Of a DNA stretch of 64,000 bases, positions 15,159 through 64,000 are shown piece by piece (positions within the stretch are counted from its first letter, which is position 1; each line of letters starts with the position of its first letter). The translations under genes were made by a program, and so were the position numbers. This stretch comes from Flavobacterium sp. (lineage in GTDB: Bacteria > Bacteroidota > Bacteroidia > Flavobacteriales > Flavobacteriaceae). The stretch covers positions 69-64,068 of the forward strand of contig JBIKJF010000011.1 in NCBI GenBank assembly GCA_044361155.1, in the 5' to 3' direction. The notes beneath the pieces are model-generated. The model saw only the letters and a list, made by a program, of their open reading frames with translations. It was not told where the DNA came from and did no database searches.

Positions 15159-16445
15159 TTGAATTTTATTAAAAACATAGTCAACTCTAATTTGTTTAAA
15201 GTCACCTCTTTAAATAGTATTAGTATTTTTATAAAGATTTTAGTTGGATTCGTAACTTCCAAAGTTATTGCCATTTTTGTCGGTCCGAGTGGAATGGCAT
15301 TAGTTGGTAATTTACGAAATTTCATGAGTTCTTTAGAAGCATTTTCAACATTAGGATTTGAAAATGGAGTAGTGAAATATGTCTCAGAAAACAAATCGGA
15401 CGAGGCAAAACTGCGAATTACTTTATCAACAGTTTTTTTTAGCGTTTTAGTTTCATGTTTGATAGTTTCGGTTAGTTTATTTTCATTTTCTGAATATTTC
15501 AACGCTAAGATTTTCGGACATTTAGAGTACAGCTATTTAATTAAAGCACTTATTATAATCATTCCTTTTTACATTGGGAATATTTTTTTAGTTGCCGTAA
15601 TAAATGGTTTAGGAAAGTATAGAAAAGTGATTTTAATTAATATTTTAGGTTCTCTACTTGGGCTATTTGTTACTATAATATTAATTACTCAATTTCAGGT
15701 TTCTGGAGCTTTATTTTCAATTGTTATTACACCTTCATTGTTGTTTTTTGTATCTTTTTATTTTATTAATAAAGAACTAAAGATTTTAAAATTCATTAGC
15801 AAAAAAGAAGTGAAGTTTGTTGCGTTAAAGAATTTTTCTTCATTTACTATAATGGCTTTGGTTTCTTCTGTTTTTGGACCTTTAGTTTTACTTTCCATCA
15901 GAAATCATGTTATTGGTTCACTTGGAATAGATGCTGCTGGCTATTGGGAAGGATTGAACAGAATATCGTCGTATTATTTTTTATTCATTACTTCAATTCT
16001 GGGTATTTACTTTTTGCCTAAACTTTCAAATTCCAAATCTGTTAGAGAAACAAATTCCCTTATTATTTCCTATTTCAAAACGGTTCTTCCCATATTTGTT
16101 GCAGGTTTAATTGTAATTTTTATCTTTAAAGATGTTATCATTCAGTTACTTTTTACTAAAGACTTTTCTCCAATGAGTACACTATTTTTTTGGCAAATAG
16201 TAGGTGATATTTTAAAAGCAGCTTCTTACATTTTAGCTTTTCAATTTTATGCAAAAAAAATGACAAAAGCGTTTGTTTTATTTGAAATAGCGTCTCTTGC
16301 AGTACTTTATTTTTCGAGTATATATTTTATTTCAATCTATCAAATAGAAGGTGTAGTAATTGCTCATGCTTTTACTTATGTCATTTATTTTGTTGCTTTG
16401 GTGGTTTATTTTAGAAGAAATTTATTTTTAAAGGCAAGTAGTTAA
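15159..16445 (+). CDS. wzx: O-antigen translocase (Wzx, WzxE-like)
   Basis: Polytopic membrane protein with about 12 hydrophobic segments; GPSGMALVGNLRNF, AAGYWEGLNRIS, WQIVGDILKAAS. Confidence 0.88.
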   Translation: MNFIKNIVNSNLFKVTSLNSISIFIKILVGFVTSKVIAIFVGPSGMALVGNLRNFMSSLEAFSTLGFENGVVKYVSENKSDEAKLRITLSTVFFSVLVSCLIVSVSLFSFSEYFNAKIFGHLEYSYLIKALIIIIPFYIGNIFLVAVINGLGKYRKVILINILGSLLGLFVTIILITQFQVSGALFSIVITPSLLFFVSFYFINKELKILKFISKKEVKFVALKNFSSFTIMALVSSVFGPLVLLSIRNHVIGSLGIDAAGYWEGLNRISSYYFLFITSILGIYFLPKLSNSKSVRETNSLIISYFKTVLPIFVAGLIVIFIFKDVIIQLLFTKDFSPMSTLFFWQIVGDILKAASYILAFQFYAKKMTKAFVLFEIASLAVLYFSSIYFISIYQIEGVVIAHAFTYVIYFVALVVYFRRNLFLKASS

Positions 16446-16520
16446 TTAAGTTCTAAATTATCTCATTTATTTAATGAATTTTCAAATTTTTCTGTTTTGA
16501 AATTATTGTTTTACTTTTAA

Positions 16521-17804
16521 TTATATTTCCTTTTTTCTAAAGAAATAGCTAACACAATTTCCAATTAATACATACCCTAATAACATAAACGGCATGTACC
16601 AAACTATGAAATTCATGTGGGTATGAATAAATGAATGACTTTTAAAGATTGTAAACCATGATAATGGCGCAAGAATAGAAACCCAAAGTGTGATTGTTAA
16701 TCCTAAAGTTTTTTTGGATTTGTATTTTGATAAAGTAAATATTGTTGCAATTATTAAAACACAAATACATTGAAAAAAGCTTACACTTAAATCGAGATCA
16801 TGGTATTTAAATACAAATTGATTTCCTTCAAAATATATTTTTAAAACATCCAAAACAGCACTTTTCATCGATTGATTATATACAGGGTCAAGGTACTTGC
16901 TAGGATTATCATAACTTCTTCTTAAAAAGGTTTCCATTAAATAATTCCAGCCATTTAGTTTTTGACTGTTTAAATGTGAAAGTTGAAGGAGTAATACAGC
17001 AAGTGACATGACAATTCCAATAATAGCTCCAAAAGCTGCACTAGATGATATCTTTAAAAATTTTAAAAAGCTCCAATTATCTGATATACTATAAAAAATG
17101 ACTGGCATTATAAACATTATTAACGTTGTTGTAATGTATTCATATCCAGTAAAAAAGCATTTAATAAAGATTAAAACACTTGAAAATAATCCAATTTTAG
17201 TCAAAGATAATTGTATGGTTCTACTTTTTTCAAAATATCTTAAAAGCAAAATAAATGGTAAATAAAACGACCATAAACTCCACCAAATATTTTTACTAAA
17301 AATGATAATCCAATAAGACGAAATAATTAAAATTAAAGTAATTAAAGAAGTAATTAATCCGAATTGTTGCACAACCCATTTCAAAAATAAAGTAAAAATT
17401 AAACTTGTTAAACCTGCAGTTATGAGGTAAAAAAACATCAAATTGCATTCATTTGAAAACGGTGATATTTTATCAAGAAATGAGAATAAAATCGCTTGAC
17501 CACCAATTTGACTAAAATAAGTTGTGTAGTTTTCTTTTGGAGCAGCTTTATTATTTATGTAAATGTCATATTGATTTGTATCAATAAATGTTCCATAAGT
17601 CCCAGTTAAACCGCTTTCATAAAAGATGCCTTCGCGTTCTGAAAGTGCTAATTTTCCTATTACTAATGATTCAGAATCTTTTTGAAAATCCTCAAAATTA
17701 GTGTTTAAAATCCCAAATAAATTTGTGAAAAATACTGTTGTAAGAATCAGGAATGACAGTAAATAATAAATAGTTAACTTACTGAGCCTTGTCATATTTA
17801 TCAA
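16521..17804 (-). CDS. Polytopic membrane protein, probable GT-C-type glycosyltransferase/modification enzyme
   Basis: Many hydrophobic segments with periplasmic loops (DFQKDSESLV, YFSQIGGQ, GYEYIT, HSFIHTHMN); overlaps the upstream GtrB-like gene. Confidence 0.5.
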   Translation of the reverse strand: MINMTRLSKLTIYYLLSFLILTTVFFTNLFGILNTNFEDFQKDSESLVIGKLALSEREGIFYESGLTGTYGTFIDTNQYDIYINNKAAPKENYTTYFSQIGGQAILFSFLDKISPFSNECNLMFFYLITAGLTSLIFTLFLKWVVQQFGLITSLITLILIISSYWIIIFSKNIWWSLWSFYLPFILLLRYFEKSRTIQLSLTKIGLFSSVLIFIKCFFTGYEYITTTLIMFIMPVIFYSISDNWSFLKFLKISSSAAFGAIIGIVMSLAVLLLQLSHLNSQKLNGWNYLMETFLRRSYDNPSKYLDPVYNQSMKSAVLDVLKIYFEGNQFVFKYHDLDLSVSFFQCICVLIIATIFTLSKYKSKKTLGLTITLWVSILAPLSWFTIFKSHSFIHTHMNFIVWYMPFMLLGYVLIGNCVSYFFRKKEI

Positions 17805-18711
17805 TTTGTAATTTTATGTTTTTCTTGTCTATATTGGTGATTAAATCTAAAATTAAACCACAACAAAAAAGCAATAATGACATGATTATTAAACTTATAG
17901 CTAAAATTGCTGTTGGAACTTTATAGACATATCTATATTCGATATATTCATAAACTGGAAATGATGAAAGTACACAACCAACTATGAAAAATACTGATGA
18001 AAATAAAGTAAAAAATGACAAGGGTTTATACAAACGATACAGTTTAAAAATCGTTTTTATCACTTTAAATCCATCTGAAAATGTATTTAGTTTAGAAATA
18101 CTTCCCTCAGGTCTATCATTATATTGTATTGGAACTTCTTTTACGATTAAATTGTAATTTAATGAAAAAAGCGTTAAATCTGTTTCTAGTTCAAATCCTT
18201 TGACTAAAGTTGAATAATTTTTTACAAATGCTTTATTAAAAACTCTGTAACCACTTAAAATATCATCTAATCTTGAATTGAAAATAGTATTTATTAACCA
18301 TTTTATCAGCCAATTCCCAAAACCATGAAATTTTCTTTTGTTGTTATTTTGATAGGATTTATTTGTAATTCTATCACCAACAACCATATGAGCTTCATTT
18401 TCTTCTAATTCGCTAATCAATTTTAACACTTCTGAAGCTGGATAGGTATCATCACCATCAACCATTACATAAATATCGGCATCAATGGTATTAAAAAGTT
18501 TTAAAACGGCATTTCCTTTTCCTTTTCTGAATTCTTTTAAAACTTTTGCACCTGATTTTTTGGCTAGCTCAGCAGTTTTATCAATTGAATTGTTATCGCA
18601 AACATAAATTTCTGCATTGGGCAAAACAGCTTGAAAATCAGTTACTACTTTTTCAATTGTTTTTTCTTCATTTAAACAAGGAATTAATATGGCTATTTTA
18701 TTATTTGTCAT
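17779..18711 (-). CDS. GT2 polyprenyl-phosphate glycosyltransferase (GtrB/DPM1-like)
   Basis: IPCLNEE, DNNSIDKT, VMVDGDDTY, DILSGYR, two C-terminal TM helices. Confidence 0.88.
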   Translation of the reverse strand: MTNNKIAILIPCLNEEKTIEKVVTDFQAVLPNAEIYVCDNNSIDKTAELAKKSGAKVLKEFRKGKGNAVLKLFNTIDADIYVMVDGDDTYPASEVLKLISELEENEAHMVVGDRITNKSYQNNNKRKFHGFGNWLIKWLINTIFNSRLDDILSGYRVFNKAFVKNYSTLVKGFELETDLTLFSLNYNLIVKEVPIQYNDRPEGSISKLNTFSDGFKVIKTIFKLYRLYKPLSFFTLFSSVFFIVGCVLSSFPVYEYIEYRYVYKVPTAILAISLIIMSLLLFCCGLILDLITNIDKKNIKLQIDKYDKAQ

Positions 18712-19598
18712 GTTGTTACTATTTTAAATCTAACCAATATTTCCAAATGAATGTATTTTAGAACTAAACTGTAATGTGAGTTTTTTAAATTTAGTAAAAT
18801 TTCAAAATGAACTCTTTTCATTAAAGCACGATGTTCTTCACTTGTTTTATTTAATGCTAAAGCTTTTTTAAGAATGATGAAAGTTGAAAGATTGATTTCA
18901 TGCTTTTTTTTGTAAAATTTTGTACCATGCGAATTTTCAACGATTCTTTTTTGTACAATCGGAGCATCTATAAAATCAAATTCATAAATTCTTGAAGCTC
19001 TTATCCAAAAATCTAAATCTTCATAAAATAGAGATTCATCGTAACCATTTAGTTTGTCATAGACCTCTTTTTTTATCATAGAAGAAACAGCACACATTGA
19101 TGCGCCACCTCCAGCAAGAATTCTTAAATATTCATCACCACTGGTTCTTTCTTTGATAAGTTTTAAGTTTTCATCTACAGGAAAATAATAGGAAGAATGA
19201 TTTCCTCTTTCATCAATTAATTCAGCATTTCCATAGACAATTCCAAGGTTTTTATAATCGCTGTTTTGAAATTTTTCTATTTGTAATTCGACACACTTTA
19301 GATTTAATACATCATCTGCCGCCAAATCAATAATATAGTCACCTTTAGCAAGATTAAGTGCTTTGTTAAAAGTTTTTGTATTACCAATATTTTTATCATT
19401 TTTTATAAAAGCAACCGCTTGATTAGTTTCTAACCAATGGGTAATAACTTTTACTGAATCATCGGAACTAAAGTCATCAACAATAATAATTTCAATAGAA
19501 GGGTAGGTTTGATTTTTTATAGAGTTCAAGCATTCAATCACAAATTCACTATGATTGTAATTCATACAGATAACAGAAACAAGAGGGAAATTTGTCAT
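18708..19598 (-). CDS. GT2 glycosyltransferase
   Basis: VSVICMNYNH, VDDFSSDDS, DLAADD, EDLDFWIR. Confidence 0.9.
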   Translation of the reverse strand: MTNFPLVSVICMNYNHSEFVIECLNSIKNQTYPSIEIIIVDDFSSDDSVKVITHWLETNQAVAFIKNDKNIGNTKTFNKALNLAKGDYIIDLAADDVLNLKCVELQIEKFQNSDYKNLGIVYGNAELIDERGNHSSYYFPVDENLKLIKERTSGDEYLRILAGGGASMCAVSSMIKKEVYDKLNGYDESLFYEDLDFWIRASRIYEFDFIDAPIVQKRIVENSHGTKFYKKKHEINLSTFIILKKALALNKTSEEHRALMKRVHFEILLNLKNSHYSLVLKYIHLEILVRFKIVTT

Positions 19599-45735: not shown

Positions 45736-46119
45736 TTAAAAAACATTCTCACTAAAAGTCAATATTGGTAAATAATCGACTTTGCTTAATTCATATTCAT
45801 CACAATACTCTTTCATCCATTTTTTGATGTTTGGATTGTTTTCTATCGAGATATCTTCTGAGAAATTTTCTTTTAGTTTTACTTCAAAATAATATTCGGT
45901 TGTAGAGTTTTCTTTACCTTTTATTTTTGATTTATGTTTGTGTTTGATAGATTCAATTTCACCAAAATAGGAGGTAAGGTGAAATGCTTTTGCACGACCA
46001 CCAGAATAGATTACAAGCTTTTTAGCATTGTATAAATCGTAAGGAAACTCCAATAAATTATTTTGTTTGTGTGTAGAATGAAAATAAAATATTTTTAATA
46101 CTAAATTGATTAAAAACAT
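45736..46119 (-). CDS. Hypothetical protein (start uncertain, may be a fragment)
   Basis: 127-aa ORF with protein-like composition after about residue 24; no recognised motif. Confidence 0.4.
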   Translation of the reverse strand: MFLINLVLKIFYFHSTHKQNNLLEFPYDLYNAKKLVIYSGGRAKAFHLTSYFGEIESIKHKHKSKIKGKENSTTEYYFEVKLKENFSEDISIENNPNIKKWMKEYCDEYELSKVDYLPILTFSENVF

Positions 46120-46242
46120 TTTTTTTATTTAAATAATTGAAAATGAATAGGTTTTAATTTTGTTTGTAAAATATTGATTTTGATCACATTATAATTTGTT
46201 TTTATGAAATAATGATCTAATATTTGCATTAAATCATTTATT

Positions 46243-46722
46243 ATGAATACATCTTTTGAACGTTGTGAAAACACTAAAGTTGAATGGTTAACACCACCAG
46301 AATTAGTAGAAAAATTAGGTAAATTTGATTTAGACCCATGTAGTCCAATCAATCCGCCATTTTTACATGCAACAAATAATTTCACAACTAATGATAATGG
46401 ATTGACTAAAAAATGGTTTGGTAGAGTTTATCTAAATCCACCATATGGAAGAGGAATGGAATTGTGGATGGAAAAATTAAAAATTCACGGAAATGGGATT
46501 GCATTAATTTTTGCAAGAACAGAAACAAAGTGTTTTTTTGAGCATGTTTGGAATGATGCAGATGCTGTTTTATTTGTAAAAGGTAGAATCAGATTTTATC
46601 ATGTTACAGGAATTCAAGCAGGTACTCCTGGAGCTCCAAGTGTATTTATAGCTTACGGTAAAGAAAATTCAGAAATACTTATGAATTCAGGAATTGAGGG
46701 ACGATTTATAAAATTGAAATAA
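46243..46722 (+). CDS. Phage-type DNA N6-adenine methyltransferase (Dam, PF05869-like)
   Basis: EWLTPPEL, FDLDPCS, DNGL...W, VYLNPPYG, LIFARTET, FVKGRIRF. Confidence 0.9.
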   Translation: MNTSFERCENTKVEWLTPPELVEKLGKFDLDPCSPINPPFLHATNNFTTNDNGLTKKWFGRVYLNPPYGRGMELWMEKLKIHGNGIALIFARTETKCFFEHVWNDADAVLFVKGRIRFYHVTGIQAGTPGAPSVFIAYGKENSEILMNSGIEGRFIKLK

Positions 46723-46929
46723 TTATAAAATTTCATAACAAATAAATTCTGCAACATTAAACTCAGAATCAATAATCCAATCATTTTCTAATAATAACTT
46801 TTTATAAGCTTCATTTTCATCAGAAACATTTTCGACAATACCGATTACTTGCATATTTTCAATTTCATTTCCGTTTGGTGAAAATGTACTTCCTTCTGGA
46901 GTTATAAATATGTATTTTTTCATTTCCAT
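46723..46929 (-). CDS. Small acidic hypothetical protein
   Basis: 68 aa, overlaps the end of the PLD-wH gene by 10 nt; its stop abuts the Dam stop. Confidence 0.6.
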   Translation of the reverse strand: MEMKKYIFITPEGSTFSPNGNEIENMQVIGIVENVSDENEAYKKLLLENDWIIDSEFNVAEFICYEIL

Positions 46930-47714
46930 AGTTTTCTGTAATGACCATTTCCTAAAAATTCAACTAATCCCAAATCTCTTAAATATTGAAGTTGTTGTCT
47001 TATTTTATCTGTTATATGCTCATTATTAGGATAAATTATTTTCAATTGGTTTTCAAATTTATTTATTTCAGTTGATGTAAATACCTGATTTGGAATTATA
47101 TTAATACATTTAAAAACTTCTAATTTCCAGCCTTTTAATGATGAAGATATTGTTTGGTTAGGTATTTCCAGAGTATCATAATTGTTTTCTGGTGATTCAA
47201 AATTAAAATTAGGAAATTTTACTGATTCATTTGATGGAATTTTTGATAATATTTCTTTTACTTTTTCTAAATGAGAAAGATTCAATTCACCAGTTCTTTT
47301 GTTATCAGATAATAAATTAAAATCGTTTGATACTTTAGAAACTAGGTTTTTCTCATTTGAATAAATTCCATACTCATAATTATTAACTAAACCTCCATAA
47401 GTTAAATTTCCGGAACTAATTATCACTTCTTTATCATCAAATAAATAAATTTTAGAATGAAGTTTTGAAAAATTTTTTACGATTCCTTTTTGGTTAATTA
47501 TCTTCTCAATTGCAGCAATATCCAAAGAACCTGAATAAATATTTCCAAGTTTGAATGAAGTTATTAGTTCTAATTTTACATTAGATTGTTTTGCAGATAA
47601 CATTTCATCACAAATATTTTCTTTAACGAAAGGAGATGTTATTTTTATTGATTTTTTTGAATTTGAAACTAATTCTAGAAAATCTGATTTCCAAGGTGTT
47701 GTAATTGTCTTCAT
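46920..47714 (-). CDS. PLD-family nuclease fused to a DpnI-type winged-helix m6A reader
   Basis: Single HKD motif LHSKIYLFD...ISSGNLT; C-terminal KGWKLEVFKCI...YPNNEHITDKIRQQLQYLRDLGLVEFLGNGHYRKL closely follows the DpnI C-terminal domain. Confidence 0.88.
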   Translation of the reverse strand: MKTITTPWKSDFLELVSNSKKSIKITSPFVKENICDEMLSAKQSNVKLELITSFKLGNIYSGSLDIAAIEKIINQKGIVKNFSKLHSKIYLFDDKEVIISSGNLTYGGLVNNYEYGIYSNEKNLVSKVSNDFNLLSDNKRTGELNLSHLEKVKEILSKIPSNESVKFPNFNFESPENNYDTLEIPNQTISSSLKGWKLEVFKCINIIPNQVFTSTEINKFENQLKIIYPNNEHITDKIRQQLQYLRDLGLVEFLGNGHYRKLWK

Positions 47715-47923
47715 TTTTTTATTTACAACTAATGAGTTAAATTCAAAAATGGTTTCGCTTGCATCTATAAAATATTTATCTCCAAACTTAATGATAATCC
47801 ATCACACTAAAAAATATTTTTAAGTTGAATAATCATAATAATTATGTCAGAAGAATAGTGTGCTTGGGTATTTTAAAACTAAAGTATAGTCAAATAAATA
47901 ATTGATTTTAGGGTTTTACTTTT

Positions 47924-49843
47924 TTAAAAACTTACTTGTCTCAAGATGGTTTTACCAAATGGAATAAGCGTGATGTTTTCTATTTGTTGCGTAGTTTTAT
48001 TTTTTGCTTTGATTGTAATTTGACCCTTATTGAAGGAAGCTTGGTTTTCTTCAATAAATTCAAAACGATGGTTGTCTTTTGGTTTATAGGTTAAATCATC
48101 AAAATTGGTGAAATAAGATTTACCTTTTTGTTCAAAAGCTTCGATAGGTTTAGCATAAAATAATGCACCATAGCTGAAATAGTTTTCGTTGTTCAAGTCT
48201 TTTTTTATTTCAACCTCGGCTTTGAATTCTAAAGTTAGCGCCTCTTGTTTTTTAAATTTTCTATTGAATACAATAAAGTCGTTTTCAATGGTATATTTTT
48301 CATTCGTTACAATCTGTTTCACCCATGATGGTTTTCTAATTTTTAAAACAAAGGAAGCTTGCTTTGGATTTGAAATTTTGAAAACGAATTTGTTCTCATA
48401 AGGATATTCCGTTACTGTCTCGATAGTGATGGGTTTATTTTGAATCTTAGTGGTAACACTATTGGGCATTAGAAGCACATTTACTAAGGTGTTTTTATTT
48501 TCTTTCAACCATGCTTTTTCTATAAAGTAAGGCGTAATTCGTCCAGCATTAGGATTGCAACAAACCGCTACATCTTGGTGCGCAGGAGAATATTTGTAAC
48601 GTGTTTGTTTTCTGTCGGCTTCGATTTCACCATTTTTTGTGCCTTCCATTTCAAAGGAATTATCGGTTTTAAGATAAGCAATACAAGAATGATTTGGATT
48701 ACGTGAACCTTGAGCCGCATTGTAAAAAATAGTTTCAATGGCTTCAGCAGTTTTTGGATTTCCTTGCTTTTGAAACACTACAGAATAGCTATCTAATAAT
48801 TCTTGAAGAGAACAATATTCATAACCAGTGTGAGTAGCATCGGCAGTTCGTTTAGCAATCCATTCGTCACCAATGGCACCACCAGTTAGGGTTGTAGTAT
48901 TTTCAATTCGTTGAATGTAAATTTGAAGTGCTTTTTGTAGTTCTTTATTATCAGAAGCATATGCAGCAACTAGTAGTGGTCGCAAATGCTCATAGGTATG
49001 CACACCATGCGATTGTAATTTGTAATTGGGATTTAAAATATTGCTCAATTGCACATCTTTTTCTGATTGATAGGTTTTGCTAAAATCTTGATATAGAAAC
49101 AGCGCATAATCGGTATATTTTGTGTCACCTGTAATTTGATACATTTTATCCAAAACATCGGTAAAAGTCAATCCGTGAGAAACGCCACCATTAAATGCAG
49201 TACCCGAAGAAAACGGACTGGATGTTCCAATAGGATAATTGGTCATTACATTGTCAACCGCTTTCACAATAGCGTTCCACAATTTTTTATCTTTGGAGTA
49301 TTCGTAATAGGCAAGTAAACCTCTATACATTGTTGCTTTAGACCATAATTCACCATTTTCAGAGTTGAATTGGTAGCGTAATTCCTTATCGTAAATGCCA
49401 ATATAACCGTCTTCATCTTGCGTTTTCAAAACCTCTTGAATGTACTTTTCTACTTTTTTAAGACCTACCTTATCGTTGATTAAAATTACGTTTCTGATGT
49501 AACCATCCCACCAATTGGATTGGGTTTCGCTGTTCCACCATTTGTATTGTTCACTGCCTTCCGCATCGCCTTCTTTATTGTTTCCTAAATCTTTAACTGT
49601 GCTATTTTTGTGTAATCTACCTGTGCTGTAAATAGGGTCATTGATTAAGTCAGGCACCAATTTATCCAAATTACCTACAAAACCATCAACATCTTTTTGC
49701 ATTTGTTCTTTAATCCAGCCAGTGGGTTTTATGCTTCCAAAAGGTAATATCTGATATTTTTCTGCTGTTTTAGTTGCATTTTTTTCTTGTGAATTCATTG
49801 TGAATGACGCTAGAATTACTATTGATAAATATAAATTTCTCAT
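47924..49843 (-). CDS. GH127/GH146-like beta-L-arabinofuranosidase-family glycosidase
   Basis: Signal peptide; PFGSIKPTGW, HGVHTYE, GYEYC and VAVCCNPN (Zn-Cys3 site). Confidence 0.8.
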   Translation of the reverse strand: MRNLYLSIVILASFTMNSQEKNATKTAEKYQILPFGSIKPTGWIKEQMQKDVDGFVGNLDKLVPDLINDPIYSTGRLHKNSTVKDLGNNKEGDAEGSEQYKWWNSETQSNWWDGYIRNVILINDKVGLKKVEKYIQEVLKTQDEDGYIGIYDKELRYQFNSENGELWSKATMYRGLLAYYEYSKDKKLWNAIVKAVDNVMTNYPIGTSSPFSSGTAFNGGVSHGLTFTDVLDKMYQITGDTKYTDYALFLYQDFSKTYQSEKDVQLSNILNPNYKLQSHGVHTYEHLRPLLVAAYASDNKELQKALQIYIQRIENTTTLTGGAIGDEWIAKRTADATHTGYEYCSLQELLDSYSVVFQKQGNPKTAEAIETIFYNAAQGSRNPNHSCIAYLKTDNSFEMEGTKNGEIEADRKQTRYKYSPAHQDVAVCCNPNAGRITPYFIEKAWLKENKNTLVNVLLMPNSVTTKIQNKPITIETVTEYPYENKFVFKISNPKQASFVLKIRKPSWVKQIVTNEKYTIENDFIVFNRKFKKQEALTLEFKAEVEIKKDLNNENYFSYGALFYAKPIEAFEQKGKSYFTNFDDLTYKPKDNHRFEFIEENQASFNKGQITIKAKNKTTQQIENITLIPFGKTILRQVSF

Positions 49844-56155: not shown

Positions 56156-56503
56156 ACGTTGGCTGAGGCTCTCGAAACCAATGTGGGGATTAACTACGTT
56201 GTTCCCATATAGGGAATCCTGGGCAAAAGAAAACTTTACTGATTATTGCTATAATCAATAGTTTTTTGTTCATCACGTTGGCTGAGGCTCTCGAAGCCAA
56301 TGTGGGATTAACTACGTTGTTCCCATATAGGGAATCCTGGGCAAAAGAAAACCTAAATGATTATTTGCATAATCATTTGTTTTATACTTCACGTTGGTTG
56401 AAGCTCTCGAAGTCAATGTTGGGATTAACTTCGTTGTTCCCAGATAGGGAATCCTGGGCAAAAGAAAACCTAAATGATTATTTGCATAATCATTTGTTTT
56501 TTT
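56156..56503. repeat. Three tandem ~117-bp structured repeats
   Basis: Units start at 56156, 56275 and 56391; each has TTGG-CTGAGGCTCTCGAAG-CCAA-like, TTCCC-A.ATA-GGGAA and GATTAT-TTGC/TGCT-ATAATC hairpins plus a T-rich tail. Confidence 0.92.
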
Positions 56504-56560
56504 ATTTCAAAAAAACGACTTTCAAAAGCAAAGCTTTTGAGCCATTTTTTTGTAATAAAA

Positions 56561-56587
56561 AAACCGATTAGCTATGCTAATCGGTTT
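56561..56587 (-). terminator. Intrinsic terminator downstream of the tRNA 3' fragment
   Basis: Perfect AAACCGATTAGC-TAT-GCTAATCGGTTT, followed by a T run on the minus strand. Confidence 0.85.
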
Positions 56588-56592
56588 TCTTT

Positions 56593-56610
56593 TGCGGAGA
56601 AAGAGGGATT
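56593..56610 (-). other. att core: duplicated 3' end of a tRNA-Ser-like gene
   Basis: Minus strand AATCCCTCTTTCTCCGCA equals the T-arm 3' half, acceptor strand and G73 discriminator; the T-loop is broken (GGTT-AATCCC instead of GGTTCGAATCCC) and the rest of the tRNA is absent. Confidence 0.8.
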
Positions 56611-56666
56611 AACCTCGTGCCTTTATATTGCTGATATACAATGTAGTATATTTTGTTTTTAATTCA

Positions 56667-56839: not shown

Positions 56840-57043
56840 CTAACCAATAATAAGACGCTCAACTTGTTCATATTTTAAGCTAGTGTATTGGCAGAACTCC
56901 TCGATGCTCACAAGTTCATTTTGGAGCTTATTGAGGTCCTTTCTGATATTTTGCAACATTCGTATGCTTTGCCTGTAACTCTTCCCTGTAATACGTTGTA
57001 TGTCCTTTGGGTAGATACACAATCTCTTATTTTCAATTTTCAT
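56840..57043 (-). CDS. Small basic HTH protein, excisionase/RDF-like
   Basis: 67 aa, IYPKDIQRITGKSYRQSIRMLQNIRK (MerR/Xis-like HTH); first gene inside the att. Confidence 0.6.
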   Translation of the reverse strand: MKIENKRLCIYPKDIQRITGKSYRQSIRMLQNIRKDLNKLQNELVSIEEFCQYTSLKYEQVERLIIG

Positions 57044-57206
57044 ACACTATCTATAGCTTTAACTAGGCTTTGACTTACATGAAAGCCGTATAATCCAATT
57101 TTTTGAACAGGATAAAATTAGTAAAAAATCTATTTTGTTTAGAAGCTGCAATTTACTTTTAATTTTTAGGTTCAAAAACGTGTATTTATGTCGATTTCTG
57201 CCATTT

Positions 57207-57223
57207 ATGTCACAAAGTGACAT
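57207..57223. promoter_or_regulatory. Operator-like palindrome in divergent intergenic region
   Basis: ATGTCAC-AAA-GTGACAT. Confidence 0.45.
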
Positions 57224-57355
57224 ATTGTATTGGTGCTACTTTTTTAATCGGTTTAATTGACTAAAATTTGTTTTTGAAATCAATCGATGGATGTTGCAAC
57301 AGAATGATGATTGAGGGAAATGATCACTGATTTTAATAATTAAAATTTTGAAGTT

Positions 57356-58114
57356 ATGGCTAGACAGAAAGGCATAATTAAACTAAAAGGTACTATCGGA
57401 GATATTACTTTTTACAAAACGCAAGATGGACACTTAGCAAGAGAAAAAGGCGGAATTGACGCTAGTAGAATTGCCAGTGACCCTGCGTTTCAAAGAACGC
57501 GTGAAAATGGTTCGGAGTTTGGCAGAGCTGGCAAAGCCGGAAAGGTTTTGAGAACGGCATTAAGAGCATTGCTTTTAAATTCTGCTGATGGTAGAATGGT
57601 TAGTCGTTTGACGCAAGCGATGGTAAAGGTTATTCAAGCGGATTTGGTGAGCGACAGAGGCTTGCGTAACGTGATTGATGGTGAAGCGGAATTGCTTACG
57701 GGATTCGAGTTTAACATTCGTGGTAAATTAGGAACTAGTTTATTCGCTCCTTTTGTTGCAACAATTGACCGTGTTGCTGGAGAAATAAGTGTTGATTTGG
57801 CTTCGTTTATTCCAGTTAATATGATTGCAGCTCCATCAGGAACTACTCATTTTAAAATTATTTCTGCTGGTGCTGAAATTGATTTTGAAGCTGAAACGTT
57901 TGTCGAAACGCATTCAGAAACTGCCATTTTACCATGGGATGCCACTGCAACTGCTGTGATAAGCCAAGTAAATGCAGTTACGCCTGCGAGTACAAAACCA
58001 TTGTTTTTGGCATTAGGTGTTGAATTTTATCAGCAAGTAAATGGAACTATGTACCCGCTTAAAAATGGTGCTTTCAACCCGTTATCGGTTGTGAAAGTAG
58101 ATAGCGGTGTGTAA
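57356..58114 (+). CDS. Hypothetical 252-aa protein (basic N-terminal arm, beta-rich C-terminal half); possible virion structural protein
   Basis: MARQKGIIKLKGTIGDITFYK...; no signal peptide; TAATG-coupled to DUF5675. Confidence 0.8.
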   Translation: MARQKGIIKLKGTIGDITFYKTQDGHLAREKGGIDASRIASDPAFQRTRENGSEFGRAGKAGKVLRTALRALLLNSADGRMVSRLTQAMVKVIQADLVSDRGLRNVIDGEAELLTGFEFNIRGKLGTSLFAPFVATIDRVAGEISVDLASFIPVNMIAAPSGTTHFKIISAGAEIDFEAETFVETHSETAILPWDATATAVISQVNAVTPASTKPLFLALGVEFYQQVNGTMYPLKNGAFNPLSVVKVDSGV

Positions 58115-58509
58115 TGGTTCTTGAATTGACCAGAACTTATTTCCCTAACGGAACTAACGGAAAACTCGAATGTAAAGGAAAATCGATTTGTAATACAATT
58201 GAGTTACCATGGAGAGAAAATGAAACGAGAGTTTCCTGCATTCCGGAAGGGAAATATTTTATTAAAAAACGATACAGCCAAAAATTTCAATGGCATTTGG
58301 AGGTTTTGGATGTGAAAAACAGAAGTCTAATTCTGTTTCATCCAGCCAATAATGCTTTGCAAGAATTGAACGGTTGTATTGCTCCAGTAACTAAACTTTC
58401 TGGACCAGGATTAGGGTTGATGTCCCGAAAAGCTTTTATAAGTTTAAAATCGATGGTTTATAAAGCTTTGGACAAAAAAGAAAGTGTTGAATTGATTGTG
58501 AAATCTTAA
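58114..58509 (+). CDS. DUF5675 family protein (L,D-transpeptidase-like His/Cys peptidoglycan enzyme, putative endolysin)
   Basis: TNGKL...CNTIELPW...SCIPEGKY, ILFHPANN...GCI; no signal peptide. Confidence 0.8.
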   Translation: MVLELTRTYFPNGTNGKLECKGKSICNTIELPWRENETRVSCIPEGKYFIKKRYSQKFQWHLEVLDVKNRSLILFHPANNALQELNGCIAPVTKLSGPGLGLMSRKAFISLKSMVYKALDKKESVELIVKS

Positions 58510-58521
58510 ATAGTTATTTTT

Positions 58522-58773
58522 ATGAATATACTAGAAAGAGCGAAAGCTCCAACTCCGAAATTTTTTAAGATTTTGAGAAGTATTGGATTGGCATTATTGG
58601 GTATTAGTGGTTCAATAGTAGCTGCTCCAGTTGTTTTACCTGCAGCAGTAGTTACTGCAGCAGGTTATGTAGCTGTTGCAGGTGGTGTAATTTCTGCAAT
58701 TAGCCAAATAACTGTTGATGATAAAGCCAAGAAAGAAATTGAGAACCTCAGCAAAGCGCGTGATGGAAACTAA
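58522..58773 (+). CDS. Small membrane protein, holin-like
   Basis: 83 aa, long Ala/Val/Gly hydrophobic stretch (about 2 TM), basic N-terminus, charged C-terminus. Confidence 0.6.
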   Translation: MNILERAKAPTPKFFKILRSIGLALLGISGSIVAAPVVLPAAVVTAAGYVAVAGGVISAISQITVDDKAKKEIENLSKARDGN

Positions 58774-58939
58774 TATTTCTTTAAAAGCTGGCACTGCATC
58801 AGGAACAGTATTGAGTATTTTACCCAATATTCTTTCTGAAGATATTGTAAAAACAATTATCTTAGCAGCGTTGGGAGCAACTGTTAGTTTTACGGTTTCG
58901 CTCTCATTAAAATGGTTGACAAAATCTAAAAATAAATAG
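58763..58939 (+). CDS. Small membrane protein, holin/antiholin-like (58 aa, ATG 58763)
   Basis: METNISLKAGTASGTVLSIL...IILAALGATVSFTVSLSLKWLTKSKNK; hydrophobic segments and basic tail. Confidence 0.55.
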   Translation: METNISLKAGTASGTVLSILPNILSEDIVKTIILAALGATVSFTVSLSLKWLTKSKNK

Positions 58940-58979
58940 TCCAGTTTTCGTGTGGTAACCTTTACTGGATTAACTTAAG

Positions 58980-59007
58980 AAGCCTAGTCGTTAGACCAGG
59001 CTTTTTT
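58980..59007 (+). terminator. Intrinsic terminator ending the four-gene operon
   Basis: AAGCCTAGTC-GTTA-GACCAGGCTT-TTTT; preceded by a second hairpin TAGTCCAGT...ACTGGATTA (58937-58972). Confidence 0.75.
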
Positions 59008-59429
59008 CATTTATTACAATAGCGGTATAAAATTACTCTTCGCATATCGTTTATGAGATTGATATTCTCATGAAACTGCTTTTCCTTTTGTTCTAGAAGC
59101 TTTAGTGCTGCAATATGCTTAACATGTTGCTCGTGCTCTTCCATCATGATTTTTGCTTTTGGAAAAAACTCTTTTTTGAAGTCTGGAAGACGTAAGAATG
59201 GAATTACGGAACCACAAAGAAATTGGTGCCAGAATTTTGTTTTCCATAAACTATAAGCAATGAAAAATAAACTTTCGCATTCATCCTCGTTTTGAAAAAT
59301 GATAACAAAACTGTTCGTAAATGGCTCTTTTTGTGGCTTTCCGCTGTTCATCCCTTTGTTAAGTACAAATAAATGAGGTCTTGAGTAAATCGTGTCTTTT
59401 CGGTGGGTTTTGATGATAAAATTCGGCAT
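59007..59429 (-). CDS. DUF6943-like protein
   Basis: FVLNKGMNSGKP...PFTNSF, LCGSVIPFLRL, C-terminal amphipathic helix. Confidence 0.7.
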   Translation of the reverse strand: MPNFIIKTHRKDTIYSRPHLFVLNKGMNSGKPQKEPFTNSFVIIFQNEDECESLFFIAYSLWKTKFWHQFLCGSVIPFLRLPDFKKEFFPKAKIMMEEHEQHVKHIAALKLLEQKEKQFHENINLINDMRRVILYRYCNK

Positions 59430-59569
59430 AACATTCGGCTTTAAAAATTGATTATATTTTCAATTTTCTGCGGATTTTCTCTTGAAATGCAGGTGTCTCT
59501 CGCTACGCTCGACCTATAAATTTTTCAAAAGAAAAAAAAGAAAAAAAGAAAGCCATTCGTTCAAGTGGA

Positions 59570-60689
59570 AGGTTTCAAAAAAGCAAGTTTTTTTGAAAAA
59601 ATACTACCCGAATGGGTGGAGATTTTTTCAAAAACCCGTAGGGCTTGAACTTGCTTTTTTGTAAACCTGGAACTTATCTTTGCTCTCTTTTTTTTTATTT
59701 TTTATTTTGATTTCATTTACTAAACATCATCGTATAATCTGAATTTGTTTGAAGGATTGGGTGTTGATGTGGAAGATGGTCGTCTTTGGAAGTGTATCAA
59801 TTTTTTGTAGATGGATGACTGAGTGTGATGAAAAAGAAAATGTGCTTTATCCATCTGAAAAATTGATACTCTTCCTTCTACAATTTGATTTTTGAGGATG
59901 CTTAAATAGTGTTCAGTTTTCAGGATTTAGTAATCAATCGGAATGTTGTTATGGAAATGGGAAGCATCTTCAAAAAACAATGCAAATACTTACCAAGTGC
60001 GTTGGCAGAAGCTCAGAGCAAGGGTATCATTTTTTTATTTGCTTATTGGGAGTTTCTGATTGCTTTTATTAATAGCTGATGCCACAAATAGTGTTCAGTT
60101 TACAGTTTTTAGTCTTCAGCATAAACTTGTTTAGTAACGTTATGGCATCAGCTATTGTGAAAGCAATTACCTCTGTGCGTTGTGGCAAATGAAAAATGAT
60201 ACTCTTGCTGGCTCTTTTGGTTTTGTGGGTGCCTGATTGATGTTCTGACGGAAGAAGTTATTGCCCAGAAAAAAGTTGTTATGAAAATGAAAAGGCACTT
60301 ACAAAAGCAATGAAAACACTACCGATTTAACAAGTTAGTTGCTAAAAACAGTTACCGTAAACGTTCTTGAAAGTAAGTATGACCGTAAAGTTTCCTATGA
60401 AATAGCGAACGTTGTTGAAGACAGTGGCGAAGGGTGGTTTTTTGAGTAGCCGGCTGGTGCGATGGAAGCTGCTCAAAAAGTTGCCCTAGAGCCACTGGCA
60501 AGCGCGTTGGGTGTGGCGGCTTTTTTACATAATGTTATTATAGTGCATCCTAATATTTCATTAGTAGCAGGGTGTTTCTTTATGCACTATAATGCCACAT
60601 TATGTAAAGAAGCTTGGGGAAAAAAATTACTGGCATGAGTCGCTTTGCGAACATGTTTTTGTTCCAAAAACCATGACAGTAATTTTTTT
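59570..60689 (+). other. Non-coding array of at least seven long imperfect hairpins (structured ncRNA or ssDNA element)
   Basis: Stems 59570-59668, 59788-59875, 59889-59976, 60017-60209 (nested 60059-60167), 60422-60497, 60519-60613, 60620-60689; no credible ORF. Confidence 0.8.
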
Positions 60690-60742
60690 GGAGCGTTGGC
60701 AAAGGAGTGGCATTTGAAAACTTAAAACGTAATTAAAAAAGA

Positions 60743-62341
60743 TTATTTTCTATGCCTTTTATTTATAAGTTTTTGTCTAATATTTTCTATTTTATCAATC
60801 TCCTCAACTGTTAAACCAAGTGTTCCGTTAAGTATTTGATAGTTATATTTATTTAGAATATCTTTTATAGAAGTCTTATTTTTAAATTCTGAGATATATT
60901 CTTCAAAGTTATTGCAATTGGTATAAGGAATTGGTAGTACTCTCAATTCATTTGGTGTCAATTCTAAAACTCCACCTCCATAATATCTTCCTTCTAATTC
61001 TGCAAAAGCTAATGTTAGTGAATTATAAAAAGAAAAAATAAAATTATTTAATTCAAAGCCTTCTTTAATTTCAATTTTGTATGCGCTGTCAGTAACAAGA
61101 ACATCTGCATCATTTCTTAAAAGTTTAGGATATTCATGTGCTCTCTTAAAAAAGAAAGCTTCAGGAATTGTAGCTATGTTTGGCACCTTGTACCATCTTT
61201 CCCTTTGTTTGCATTTGAACCTTGAAGGTAATTCCAATTGATTACCAATATTAAAATATTCGTTCATTTCAGGAGTAATTTCATTATCAATTAAAGAATT
61301 GAAATCAAGCAAATATGTTGGTTTACGCTCTTCAACTAATGTATCAAAATCTTTTTTATTGAATGTAACCGAACCGTTTACGAAGAATCCTTTTTGAACA
61401 ATTGGTTTAGCAAAATTTTGAAAATTATATGCTTGAACAACATCATTATTTACTATGAAATAATTGTTGGCAGCAGTAACTATTCCCGCTTTATTATTAA
61501 TGAAATGTGTAACATTTTGTATGCGCAGTTTTAAGTTTTCTAGAAACTCATATTCTTCGGGTGTTATAAAATGATGTGACCACTTCCTGTCTGAATTAGC
61601 AAGTGCGGTATTTTCATAAAACTCATAATTATCATTTTCTAAATCGTCTAATGCATTAATATTAGTATAGAATGTTCCTTGATTTTCATGTGCTTTATAT
61701 CCAATTAATAAAACCGTATCTTGTCCTTTACATTCCTGGAATTGAAGTTCATTAAAAGTAAAAATTTCTATTCTTTGAAATTCATTTATTAATAACGATC
61801 TTATTTCTTCAGTAAATTTGACTTGCAATAATTCTAATGGTAATATCATCGCCAAAATACCATTATCTTGTAGTTTAGTAATTCCGCTTATTAAAAAAGA
61901 TGTCCAAATATTATTAATACTTCTATCTGATAAATATTTTTCAGAATGAATCCTTTTTGCTAACTCTTTCTGCTCCTCTGACAAATGATTTTTTTTAACA
62001 TAAGGAGGATTTCCGATAATAAGTGAGTAGCGATTTTGGTCGTTGAAATGGAAATTTAAGTAATCTAAATTATTTGGAATTAAATTAATTTTTTGATTTA
62101 TTTCAAGATCAATTACTTTTTGTAATTCGTCATTTTCTTTTTCTACAACTGTATTGTTAATCGTTTCAAATCTTTCAAGTTCTTGACTTTTTGATATTGC
62201 ATTGATAAAAGCACCATCCCCAACACTTGGTTCAAGTATAGATATAGTTTGTTGATTGTCTATCTTGGATAAACAATAATCTGCCACAAAATCTGCTAAT
62301 CTTGTAGGTGTATAATAAGAACCTAACTTTTTTTTATTCAT
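60743..62341 (-). CDS. Gamma-class N6-adenine DNA methyltransferase (Eco57I/TaqI-like)
   Basis: LGSYYTP, motif I ILEPSVGDGAF, motif IV IIGNPPYV, C-terminal AELEGRYYGGGVLELTPNE. Confidence 0.92.
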   Translation of the reverse strand: MNKKKLGSYYTPTRLADFVADYCLSKIDNQQTISILEPSVGDGAFINAISKSQELERFETINNTVVEKENDELQKVIDLEINQKINLIPNNLDYLNFHFNDQNRYSLIIGNPPYVKKNHLSEEQKELAKRIHSEKYLSDRSINNIWTSFLISGITKLQDNGILAMILPLELLQVKFTEEIRSLLINEFQRIEIFTFNELQFQECKGQDTVLLIGYKAHENQGTFYTNINALDDLENDNYEFYENTALANSDRKWSHHFITPEEYEFLENLKLRIQNVTHFINNKAGIVTAANNYFIVNNDVVQAYNFQNFAKPIVQKGFFVNGSVTFNKKDFDTLVEERKPTYLLDFNSLIDNEITPEMNEYFNIGNQLELPSRFKCKQRERWYKVPNIATIPEAFFFKRAHEYPKLLRNDADVLVTDSAYKIEIKEGFELNNFIFSFYNSLTLAFAELEGRYYGGGVLELTPNELRVLPIPYTNCNNFEEYISEFKNKTSIKDILNKYNYQILNGTLGLTVEEIDKIENIRQKLINKRHRK

Positions 62342-62967
62342 TATCTTCTAATTTCTTTCAACTTATAAGGTCTTATTTTTTTTCTTTTTTCGGTTATATC
62401 ACTTAACTTTGAGAAAGCATCAATTAGATTTAATATAGATTGCTTATCTGCTAAAATTAAATCCAGTTTACCTAATTTTTCAAGGTCTTTTCTAACCGCT
62501 AAAGCTCTTTCATTTAATAATTGTTCCCTTCTTTCATATATAAGTTGTGCTCTATTTAAAAATAATCGTTGAGTAATATAACTGCTACTTATATAATTAC
62601 CTGCAAGTTTGTATGTTTTTGTATCTAGCGTAAATAATGTTGAATAGTCATATATTGATGGATCTGGATAGCAACATATATTTAAACTATATGCATCATT
62701 TGGCCAATCATCACTTTTAAATCTATTGCAAATAGGACATGCATAGAATAAATTTAAAATATTATTTTCTAAATGCTGAAATCGCGCAAACGACTTTGGT
62801 TTATAATGTTCAATATGGTAGTGGTCAATACCACCAAATTGTGTTTCATTTATCGAACAATAAACGCATTGATAAAAACATTCCTCTGCAATCTGCTCTT
62901 TCCAGTCAGAATAAATACCAGTTGTAGGTTGTTTGGCAGGATTTTTAATTATTAATTTCCAATTCAA
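62341..62967 (-). CDS. Zn-finger HNH endonuclease
   Basis: QCVYC, HIEHYKPKS, NLFYACPICNRFKS. Confidence 0.9.
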   Translation of the reverse strand: MNWKLIIKNPAKQPTTGIYSDWKEQIAEECFYQCVYCSINETQFGGIDHYHIEHYKPKSFARFQHLENNILNLFYACPICNRFKSDDWPNDAYSLNICCYPDPSIYDYSTLFTLDTKTYKLAGNYISSSYITQRLFLNRAQLIYERREQLLNERALAVRKDLEKLGKLDLILADKQSILNLIDAFSKLSDITEKRKKIRPYKLKEIRR

Positions 62968-63680
62968 TTTTGATTCAATTTTGATTGTAATTCAGTTTTA
63001 AGTTTTTCTAATTCCAATATTGTATTTTCATATTGGTCTAGCCATTCTTGCCTATCATTAAGTGTAGTGTCTAGCGGTAAATGCAATTTAGTTTGTAATG
63101 CTAACAAGCTATCATATTCATCTTGACTGTATTCACCAGACGCTACTTTTTCAGATAGTTTTTGAAACTCTTGTAATTCAATTTTATTCTCATCCAAATA
63201 CCTCTGTGTAGCTCTAATGATTCTATTAACATATTTATCTCCTTCATTTATGAATTCTTGTCTTTCTATTATATCTTCAAATTCACTGAATTTTGCAGTC
63301 AATTCATCGTCACCTTTATTAGATGTTATTACATAAATTGGAATGTCTTTAAAACGTTCACGAATTACTGAAACCAATTGGTCTCCTCTATAATTAACGG
63401 GTCCAATTCCCTTTTCAGTTTCATTATTCATCCTCTCGTCAAAAATCAAACATACAATGTTTTCATCTTTTATCCATTGGAAATATTCCTGAAATGTTTC
63501 AGTAACAAATGGGAAAATATCAATTATTTCAAAAGTTGAATCATTATTTTCTAAATAAGCTCCAAGAGAAAGTCTTAAGGTTTCTCTTTGGTCAAAATTA
63601 TCATCAATAATTCCAATTTTGTATATTTTGACAGTTTCTAGATTTTCAGTACCCTCGTTTTTAATATCAATTTTACTCAT
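62964..63680 (-). CDS. Response-regulator receiver protein with helical tail (no HTH)
   Basis: IGIIDD (D26-D27), LIFDERM (D81), IYVITS (T119/S120); R140 at the usual Lys position. Confidence 0.75.
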   Translation of the reverse strand: MSKIDIKNEGTENLETVKIYKIGIIDDNFDQRETLRLSLGAYLENNDSTFEIIDIFPFVTETFQEYFQWIKDENIVCLIFDERMNNETEKGIGPVNYRGDQLVSVIRERFKDIPIYVITSNKGDDELTAKFSEFEDIIERQEFINEGDKYVNRIIRATQRYLDENKIELQEFQKLSEKVASGEYSQDEYDSLLALQTKLHLPLDTTLNDRQEWLDQYENTILELEKLKTELQSKLNQN

Positions 63681-63683
63681 AAT

Positions 63684-64000
63684 TTATTTCTTTTCTAGTG
63701 GTAACCAAACTTTAAATCGTGCTCCTTTTAAAGTAGGATCAATATCAAAAGACACTTTTCCCTTTAAATCCCTTACAATTGAACTAACAACAGTCAACCC
63801 TAGTCCAGTTCCAATACTATTACTACCTTGTGTAGGATTTATTTTTGTAGAAAACAAAGGTTCAAAAACACGATGACTAAATTCCTTTGATACACCTGGA
63901 CCAGAATCTGATACAATTATTGAATACCCTTGTAATTCTGTTTTTTTATTGATTTTAGCATCTTCTCTTGTGAGCGAAACAATAATTTTTCTTTCGCCTC
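63684..64000 (-). CDS. Histidine kinase / HATPase_c, C-terminal part (runs off window end)
   Basis: Manual translation ...IIVSDSGPGVSKEFSHRVFEPLFSTK...GTGLGLTVVSSIVRDLKGKV...GARFKVWLPLEKK*, giving the G1, F and G2 boxes. Confidence 0.9.
   Translation of the reverse strand, partial: GERKIIVSLTREDAKINKKTELQGYSIIVSDSGPGVSKEFSHRVFEPLFSTKINPTQGSNSIGTGLGLTVVSSIVRDLKGKVSFDIDPTLKGARFKVWLPLEKK

Follow-up and report, generated by a model that had tools for sequence, protein, structure and literature searches.

A widespread four-gene operon led by an unannotated protein lies at one end of an integrated mobile element of Flavobacterium

A four-gene operon in a 64-kb stretch of Flavobacterium DNA (contig JBIKJF010000011.1; the whole stretch is called the window below) is real, very widespread, and located at one end of an integrated mobile element. 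Its first gene encodes a protein of 252 amino acids, here named P252, which is followed by a DUF5675 protein and two small membrane proteins, while the gene for a small helix-turn-helix protein, HTH67, diverges from it. Together they form a module that is conserved at the left (attL) end of integrative, plasmid-like elements, a family found in the Flavobacteriaceae. The initial annotation of this DNA had proposed three roles for the operon: the capsid and lysis genes of a tiny virus or satellite, a device for programmed lysis or release serving the spread of an element, or an abortive-infection effector. Of these, the second option agrees best with the predicted anatomy, and the first was contradicted by the fold of P252 and by its distribution.

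Anatomy and conservation of the operon

The gene set was established from the list of open reading frames (ORFs) and the raw sequence of the window (Table 1). The four ORFs are closely packed, with the P252 stop codon overlapping the DUF5675 start as TAATG, a gap of 12 nt between the DUF5675 gene and that of TM83, and the ATG of gene 4 (58763) sitting 11 nt within the end of the TM83 gene. Local folding of 58940-59015 with RNAfold revealed the hairpin and T-run that close the transcription unit, which a strict terminator scan did not list because the stem carries one mismatch. The compact, coupled operon with its own terminator that had been described initially was therefore confirmed. For gene 4 the ATG start, giving 58 amino acids, is more likely than the alternative TTG at 58715, giving 74, and the gene was called as 58 amino acids in loci L006 and L169.

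G+C makes up about 30% of the window, whose relatives are Flavobacterium genomes and lake metagenomes. What lies outside the island is ordinary chromosomal DNA (gyrB, purA, glycosyltransferases, a giant SprB-type adhesin and GH92), and among the proteins encoded there none was a terminase, portal or capsid protein, as the initial annotation had already stated for terminase and portal genes.

Conservation was analysed in two sets of loci. The first was made up of 80 loci, nearly all from Flavobacterium and the best among more than 599 matches in the species representatives of GTDB, and the second comprised 80 metagenome loci. Metagenome contigs yielded more than 540 further loci with P252 relatives. 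Such recurrence in species representatives and metagenome contigs puts the operon far beyond chance. The survey of conserved neighbours that had been suggested as a check gave the same arrangement across the 80 genome loci, with HTH67 on the minus strand (median position -481 nt from P252), then P252, DUF5675 and the two membrane-protein genes on the plus strand, and then usually a DUF6943 gene on the minus strand. Nucleotide homology between the window and other elements spans from about 56830 to about 60700 and ends there.

Table 1 Features of the module and its surroundings in the window, with their conservation in the 80 genome loci
Feature	Position	Strand	Description	Loci with the gene	Mean amino-acid identity to window
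Left island end, att-like junction	56581-56616		Conserved 28-nt motif 56583-56610		
HTH67	56840-57043	-	67-aa helix-turn-helix protein, divergent from operon, likely regulator	76/80	72%
P252	57356-58114	+	252 aa, unannotated family, core gene of Bacteroidota mobile elements	80/80	87%
DUF5675 protein	58114-58509	+	131 aa, putative cytoplasmic His/Cys peptidoglycan peptidase (C82/YkuD-like), translationally coupled to P252	73/80	76%
TM83	58522-58773	+	83 aa, two hydrophobic segments, charged C-tail; class II holin-like topology	76/80	63%
TM58 (gene 4)	58763-58939	+	Single-pass membrane protein, acidic flank, K-rich C-tail; alternative TTG start 58715 = 74 aa (TM74)	75/80 (as TM74)	64% (as TM74)
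Hairpin + T-run	~58977-59011	+	Operon terminator, shared tail-to-tail with DUF6943		
DUF6943 protein	59007-59429	-	140 aa, PF22105 E 9e-57; frequent accessory partner, first gene of leftward unit	66/80	69%
Multi-hairpin region, blocks A-E	59505-60700	+	~1.2 kb without ORF of note; candidate structured RNA or single-stranded-DNA element		
Start of variable cargo	60743-64000	-	Eco57I-type methyltransferase, PtuB-like HNH protein (E 3e-18), 238-aa protein		

The mobile element

Beyond the cargo, the genome and metagenome loci share a recurrent backbone consisting of an AAA ATPase, a replication-like protein of about 290 amino acids, an HTH_17 Xis-like protein, RteC (match at E 1e-84) and a tyrosine integrase, the last two being found together in eight loci (L034, L056, L080, L120, L128, L131, L150 and L161). 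RteC is typical of Bacteroidota transposon-like elements. In compact loci the AAA and replication genes directly follow gene 4, and cargo, DUF6943 and the hairpin region are all absent; one example, L169, is an incomplete 5.3-kb contig that ends within the element. The other end of the island had been named as a possible place for a complete tailed-phage gene set, and the related elements hold replication, RteC and integrase genes there instead. The placement of phage-like, lysis-type genes inside a mobile island is supported. Several genomes hold two or more copies of the module, and seven GTDB assemblies have it at two separate loci. Extra P252 copies lie nearby in inverted orientation in some genomes, or two modules stand 55 kb apart on one contig (L013, L040, L068, L078 and L120; L160/L161).

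The left boundary of the island falls between HTH67 and the integrase that lies upstream in some relatives. It was placed there because the homology of the window to a second element (L001) begins at 56594, past the integrase of that element, because the 28-nt motif in Table 1 is common to L017, L040, L064 and L070, and because sequencing depth drops at this point. Specifically, in a DNA run from a lake sample (run X4) the depth was about 20 at 56515-56615 and 3.7 from 56616 on, and 56581 is the start of a contig with depth 3.73; in this run the island is missing from some of the population. In 14 of the 80 loci an integrase gene lies upstream of P252, at a distance of about 2.2 kb, and, given the position of the junction, it is part of a tandem neighbour element or, equivalently, lies next to HTH67 in the circular form.

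Near this boundary, at 56156-56502, the window has three tandem copies of a 112-118-bp unit. Each unit contains one copy of a 'GGGATTAAC..CGT' motif, by which the junction of the island (56600-56618) is marked too, and repeats of this kind are present to the left of the module in L035, L028 and L012 as well. The repeats could be multiplied att-like sites or arm sites for an integrase. Because the motif at 56585-56612 has the look of a tRNA 3' end, we also considered whether a tRNA fragment serves as att site, and rejected this: ARAGORN found no tRNA in the window, very few tRNAs were present in 60 related loci, and the motif copies one inside the 118-bp repeats.

The variable cargo that starts at 60743 looks like a predicted defence cluster. 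As seen in L005, it continues past the window with a 780-aa HATPase_c_3 protein and AbiEi/AbiEii, followed by M48-TPR and CHAT-TPR proteins. In other loci the cargo includes an MmeI-type enzyme, AbiE, Thoeris-like TIR proteins, BrxL, a type I restriction subunit, HipA, Schlafen/AlbA_2 proteins, heavy-metal ATPases or RND pumps, and toxin-antitoxin genes. Taken together, synteny, RteC, the HTH_17 protein, the compact loci, the defence-rich cargo, run X4, the multiple copies and the plasmid homologues described below support the preferred reading of the operon set out later.

P252 is a large family with a non-virion fold

Neither the single P252 sequence nor a 118-member profile matched anything in Pfam, PHROGs, NCBIfam, PADLOC or PDB sequences, and the searches for remote homology, by profile against PDB and by Pfam scans of each member, were both empty. 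The family is nevertheless large. It comprises more than 6656 clusters at 90% identity among the candidates scored and at least 3282 at 50% identity (E<=1e-3), nearly all of about 250 amino acids, and near-identical copies number thousands in freshwater and wastewater Flavobacterium. Across species the amino-acid identity is 87-98%. Some UniRef entries label P252 as 'Phage major capsid protein'.

An AlphaFold2 model built from a diverse alignment (pLDDT 96, pTM 0.87) has an N-terminal three-stranded sheet, a helical region (36-94) and a C-terminal beta-sandwich (116-249). The N-terminal half is basic (pI ~10) and nearly invariant, whereas the acidic sandwich (pI 4.7) varies more. The initial annotation was therefore right about a basic N-terminal half and a beta-rich C-terminal half but not about a loose N-terminal arm, since this part folds into the three strands and helices of the model. 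Invariance of the basic N-terminal half suggests that P252 may bind nucleic acid or another conserved partner.

Structure prediction followed by a fold search had been put forward as the test for a jelly-roll or other capsid fold. With the model at hand, Foldseek returned nothing at E<=1e-3 in PDB or BFVD and no HK97 or jelly-roll match; its best matches were partial, aligning the sandwich with C2/Ig-like domains at a target-normalised TM-score of about 0.4-0.5. P252 relatives were likewise absent from 50,697 phage genomes (tblastn) and from IMG/VR (two pattern scans). P252 is thus not a virus coat protein by any test that we ran, and the capsid option of the initial annotation fails on the very outcome, a non-virion fold, that it had named as refuting.

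A separate observation concerns the 5' end of the gene. In the segment 57340-57530 the first 24 P252 codons have about half the synonymous variation of the remaining gene, and the depth of this segment in lake DNA metagenomes is 5-8x that of its flanks, which implies either an extra constraint at the nucleotide level or a very widely shared segment.

A candidate lysis cassette follows P252

In Pfam, gene 2 was assigned to DUF5675 (PF18925, E 7.6e-32), and among the PHROGs to phrog_1501. His76 and Cys88 of its product are invariant in sets of 31, 45 and 73 homologues, as is His61 in 31 to 73 homologues, and His76 and Cys88 form the His-x11-Cys motif that had been pointed out initially, with the cysteine in the context 'GCIAP'. 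A hydrophobic leader is absent from both P252 and the DUF5675 protein, which for the latter bears out the predicted lack of a signal peptide. A preprint on candidate phage lysins classes DUF5675 by predicted structure as 'C82-like', that is, with an L,D-transpeptidase fold, and also reports significant structural differences. In the Vibrio phage Virtus, a gene with a transmembrane (TM) helix directly follows the DUF5675 gene (PMC9229204).

Hydropathy supports both of the small membrane proteins that had been proposed to follow the DUF5675 protein. TM83 shows a pair of hydrophobic segments and ends in a charged tail, and TM58 keeps a 'SEDI..TM..KWLTKxKxK' pattern in 119 variants, with a lysine-rich tail and an acidic flank. 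By their predicted topology, both resemble holins and stand next to the DUF5675 gene. Genes 2-4, a leaderless candidate wall enzyme and then two membrane proteins with charged tails, thus have by analogy the classic endolysin-holin layout. No spanin match was found for the cassette. The coupling, the terminator, the invariant His and Cys, the lack of a leader, the class given in the preprint and the gene order in Virtus likewise support the preferred reading of the operon set out below.

P252 and HTH67 occur on plasmids

A tblastn search of PLSDB found P252 homologues (38-46% identity) on seven Fulvitalea axinellae plasmids of 44 to 325 kb, and another on a 25-kb Marivirga plasmid. The seven plasmids belong to one F. 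axinellae strain, and each has its own P252 homologue. On the 44-, 62- and 107-kb plasmids, which we inspected and in which the layout is clearly kept, the P252 gene adjoins a replication initiator, of the Rep3 type on pFA12, the plasmid that was scanned. ParB or ParAB lies close to P252 on pFA12 and on the 250-kb Fulvitalea plasmid. A divergent HTH67 homologue and a small ORF precede P252 on the 44-, 62- and 107-kb plasmids, the homologue having 43% identity (E 1e-16) and keeping the 'IYPKDIQRITGKS' motif. Viewed plasmid by plasmid, pFA5, pFA7, pFA9 and pFA12 (L175-L178) all have a small divergent gene ahead of P252, confirmed as an HTH67 homologue on pFA12, and the replication initiator stands beside the pair in three of the four plasmids inspected. 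P252 and its divergent partner may serve a plasmid-specific function there.

On the Marivirga plasmid, P252 is accompanied by an HTH-like gene, a DUF5675 fragment and a small ORF, and an integrase is present too. Among distant metagenomic relatives DUF5675 is kept in 2/3, and one P252 relative stands alone beside a type I CRISPR-Cas locus. From these plasmid and distant layouts we conclude that P252 and HTH67 make up an old pair at the core of mobile elements in Bacteroidota, occurring also beside the replication initiator of plasmids of the Cytophagales, and that the lysis-type genes were a common yet dispensable extra.

Possible roles of the module

Our preferred reading, which we hold tentatively, is that the operon serves an integrative plasmid-like element as an exit or kill module under the control of a repressor, in which a cassette of the endolysin-holin type is co-translated with P252. 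HTH67 would repress the divergent operon and keep it silent. When the element is activated, the integrase would excise it with the help of Xis and RteC, and Rep and the AAA ATPase would replicate it. P252 would then be co-translated with the leaderless His/Cys peptidoglycan peptidase and the two holin-like membrane proteins, which would give the DUF5675 enzyme access to the wall, so that the cell would be breached or killed. The outcome would be either the release of amplified element DNA or the sacrifice of the host. HTH67 is likely to be the predicted regulator of the operon, and its own family matches are weak, to HTH_17 or Cox-like excisionase families.

Several results weigh against the exit or kill module. 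On the Fulvitalea plasmids inspected no DUF5675 or membrane-protein genes follow P252, and the role of P252 therefore does not require lysis. Neither TM83 nor the gene 4 product matched a holin family in the libraries scanned, and TM83 matched no family at all. The DUF5675 model, made from a shallow alignment, reached a pLDDT of only 58.5, and its top Foldseek match, the L,D-transpeptidase 5uwv, was not significant (E 0.27); with so poor a model the search is suggestive at most. A palindrome at 57206-57224, which we considered as a conserved operator and rejected, is present in only 2/78 loci. As for the element itself, phage structural or packaging genes were found in none of the 80 genome and 80 metagenome loci. 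Relaxase/oriT and type IV secretion were absent from the first 25 of the 133 families listed for 150 flank proteins (the flanks being 10 kb), and relaxase and type IV secretion from the backbone proteins of L034. None of the 80 metagenome loci is a circular contig carrying P252, and nothing among these results points to a route by which released DNA would get to another cell. Finally, the window stops inside the cargo, the right end of its own island lies outside it, and the backbone is known from related loci.

The abortive-infection option of the initial annotation, in a kil-type form, is the best of the alternatives, and we consider it unlikely. Here P252 would sense phage or stress through its variable C-terminal sandwich and trigger the peptidase and membrane proteins, killing the cell, and the module would be carried like other defence cargo. 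The module does always adjoin defence islands, it is found on plasmids as well as islands with several paralogues per genome, P252 combines a variable C-terminal half with an invariant N-terminal one, and one distant homologue stands alone beside CRISPR-Cas genes. However, the module is the constant backbone and the cargo the variable part, its proteins had no PADLOC match, an identity of 87-98% across species would be unusual for a sensor engaged in an arms race, and the Fulvitalea P252 adjoins a replication initiator without effector genes.

Somewhat less probable is a non-lytic role in maintenance, with P252 serving the replication, establishment or anti-defence of the element and the DUF5675 and membrane proteins remodelling the wall locally, for example for the passage of DNA. 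The classic lysis layout, with P252 closely coupled to a wall hydrolase that has no leader and to holin-like proteins, speaks against this, as does the lack of transfer machinery or a relaxase among the families listed, even though P252 adjoins Rep3 and ParAB on plasmids, HTH67 and P252 would lie near Rep in the circularised element, and strand-specific hairpins resembling single-strand promoters are found nearby.

More speculative is the idea, improbable in our judgement, that P252 and HTH67 are the signature of a not yet described function shared by the plasmids and integrative elements of Bacteroidota. In Flavobacterium, together with the lysis cassette and possibly a 1.2-kb RNA, this function would be capsid-independent transfer, in which DNA coated or condensed by P252 is released by lysis or in vesicles. 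If true, the hairpin region (59505-60700) would represent a new class of large mobile-element RNA.

A phage-satellite module, in which P252 would act on the capsid of a helper phage by binding or remodelling it and genes 2-4 would set the time of lysis, is more doubtful again. The layout of the element resembles that of phage-inducible chromosomal islands (PICIs) and P4 in its integrase, Xis-like protein, replication genes, divergent regulator and defence hotspot, and P252 has an Ig/C2-like sandwich and very high conservation. Against this, the families listed for backbone and cargo proteins included no homologue of terS, cos/pac, cpm/ppi, sid/psu or capsid-morphogenesis genes, P252 was not found in IMG/VR, and the largest of the plasmids that carry it, at 325 kb, is too large for any capsid.

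That a minimal tailless virus uses P252 as its coat protein, perhaps by means of a new capsid fold or a membrane vesicle, and genes 2-4 for lysis, is very improbable: the basic N-terminal half and beta-sandwich of P252, its place at the head of a lysis-type operon, the capsid label of some UniRef entries and the small backbone of the element are hard to reconcile with plasmids of hundreds of kb that carry P252 and no lysis genes, with the fold result in PDB and BFVD, and with its absence from phage and virus collections, to which a freely varying cargo size and the lack of small circular contigs among the metagenome loci can be added. An inovirus, suggested by coat-like TM proteins and the hairpin region, was rejected by eye, since the ATPase seems DnaC-like, not Zot-like, and the Rep DnaD-like, not HUH.

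DUF6943 and other neighbouring features

The DUF6943 gene, which is absent from minimal elements, is separated from gene 4 by an interval (58940-59007) that in many related loci holds one to four extra minus-strand genes, placed downstream of DUF6943 (for example in L015, L018, L019, L024, L041, L057, L080 and L082), so that the module contains a second hotspot for cargo. In DUF6943 itself, the 'NKGMNSGKP' stretch and the C-terminal helices may, as judged by eye, resemble one type I restriction specificity-subunit target-recognition domain. Elsewhere in the window, outside the operon region, G+C falls to 0.24-0.26 at 16000-19000 and 46000-48000.

A 1.2-kb region of conserved hairpins

Between DUF6943 and the cargo, the region 59505-60700 is conserved at the nucleotide level in 40-62 of the 80 loci. 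It shows no codon periodicity (ratios of 1.0-1.3, vs 3.6-17 in P252) and folds as five blocks of long hairpins, and a hairpin with a T-run closes the stretch near 60690. RNAalifold, run on a MAFFT alignment of 21 loci, predicted 183 pairs, 75 of them with changes on both sides. In block C, 94.9% of cells were paired vs 86.4% in shuffles (none of 500 shuffles reached the observed value), double-change cells numbered 105 vs 35.5, and sliding the partners lowered the paired cells to 35-50%. The plus strand always folds better, with conserved U-G pairs. Rfam 15 gave no match at E<=1 within 59430-60740. A DNA motif of block A matched two IMG/VR contigs, one without other similarity and one of integrase fragments. 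The region is absent from minimal elements and distant modules, and it therefore travels with DUF6943 and the cargo.

The region could be a large structured RNA, as its predicted folding suggests, or, by analogy, a set of single-strand DNA signals like the Frpo/ssi single-strand promoters that occur in plasmid leading regions (PMC11541004). The second possibility suits the fact that DUF6943 and most of the cargo lie on the opposite strand. The conserved U-G pairs and the presence of the region in one RNA library lean towards RNA. In that small RNA-type library it reached a depth of 43-127, with hardly any P252. The RNA evidence is weak, since the other RNA libraries mirror the depth spikes that multi-copy conserved pieces produce in DNA runs; depth in RNA libraries, confounded in this way, was rejected as a measure of expression.

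Comparison with known systems

Full-text literature searches found DUF5675 mentioned in three papers and DUF6943 in none, and nothing relevant on RteC-type Flavobacterium islands; no description of P252, HTH67 or the element family was among the results. P252 is a large unannotated family whose confident predicted fold matches nothing solved and which marks mobile DNA with defence and metal-resistance cargo. Its function would explain how islands without relaxase or capsid spread at 87-98% identity across species, and P252 is a potential marker for such islands and their defence hotspots in Bacteroidota. The 1.2-kb hairpin array is in turn a candidate new large structured RNA or single-strand DNA signal.

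The operon shares with phage endolysin-holin cassettes a leaderless candidate hydrolase followed by membrane proteins with charged tails, in one compact unit with a terminator. Unlike those cassettes it is led by, and coupled to, a 252-aa protein that is unknown in phages, it lies on a non-viral integrative element, and it has no spanin or holin match. The DUF5675 protein resembles the L,D-transpeptidase/YkuD enzymes (MEROPS C82) in its invariant His and in a Cys in a G-C-I/V context, but it has no sequence match to YkuD families (Pfam returned DUF5675 only) or to PDB chains (profile search), and its His-Cys spacing is 11 residues.

PICIs and P4-like satellites combine an integrase, an Xis-like protein, replication genes and a divergent regulator with a hotspot of variable defence genes. 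The element has all of these, yet no packaging or capsid-redirecting genes were found in it, it has RteC, and its core gene is common to large plasmids. An analogy can also be drawn with the kil-kor loci of plasmids and with colicin lysis genes, where, as here, a potentially host-lethal module may stand beside a small repressor-like protein on a mobile element; the present arrangement is divergent, unlike theirs, and there is no sequence relationship. The region 59505-60700 recalls both the Frpo/ssi promoters (PMC11541004) and the multi-hairpin intergenic region of filamentous phages, all having long strand-specific hairpins without ORFs upstream of genes on the opposite strand, and differs from them in its five consecutive hairpin blocks over 1.2 kb, in its conserved U-G pairs and in having no relaxase or rolling-circle Rep. 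Of the features that define a virus, a PICI/P4-like satellite or a conjugative element, none was found beyond integrase and RteC, and it is this pair, present in loci related to the window, that the element has in common with the RteC-type integrative elements of Bacteroidota.

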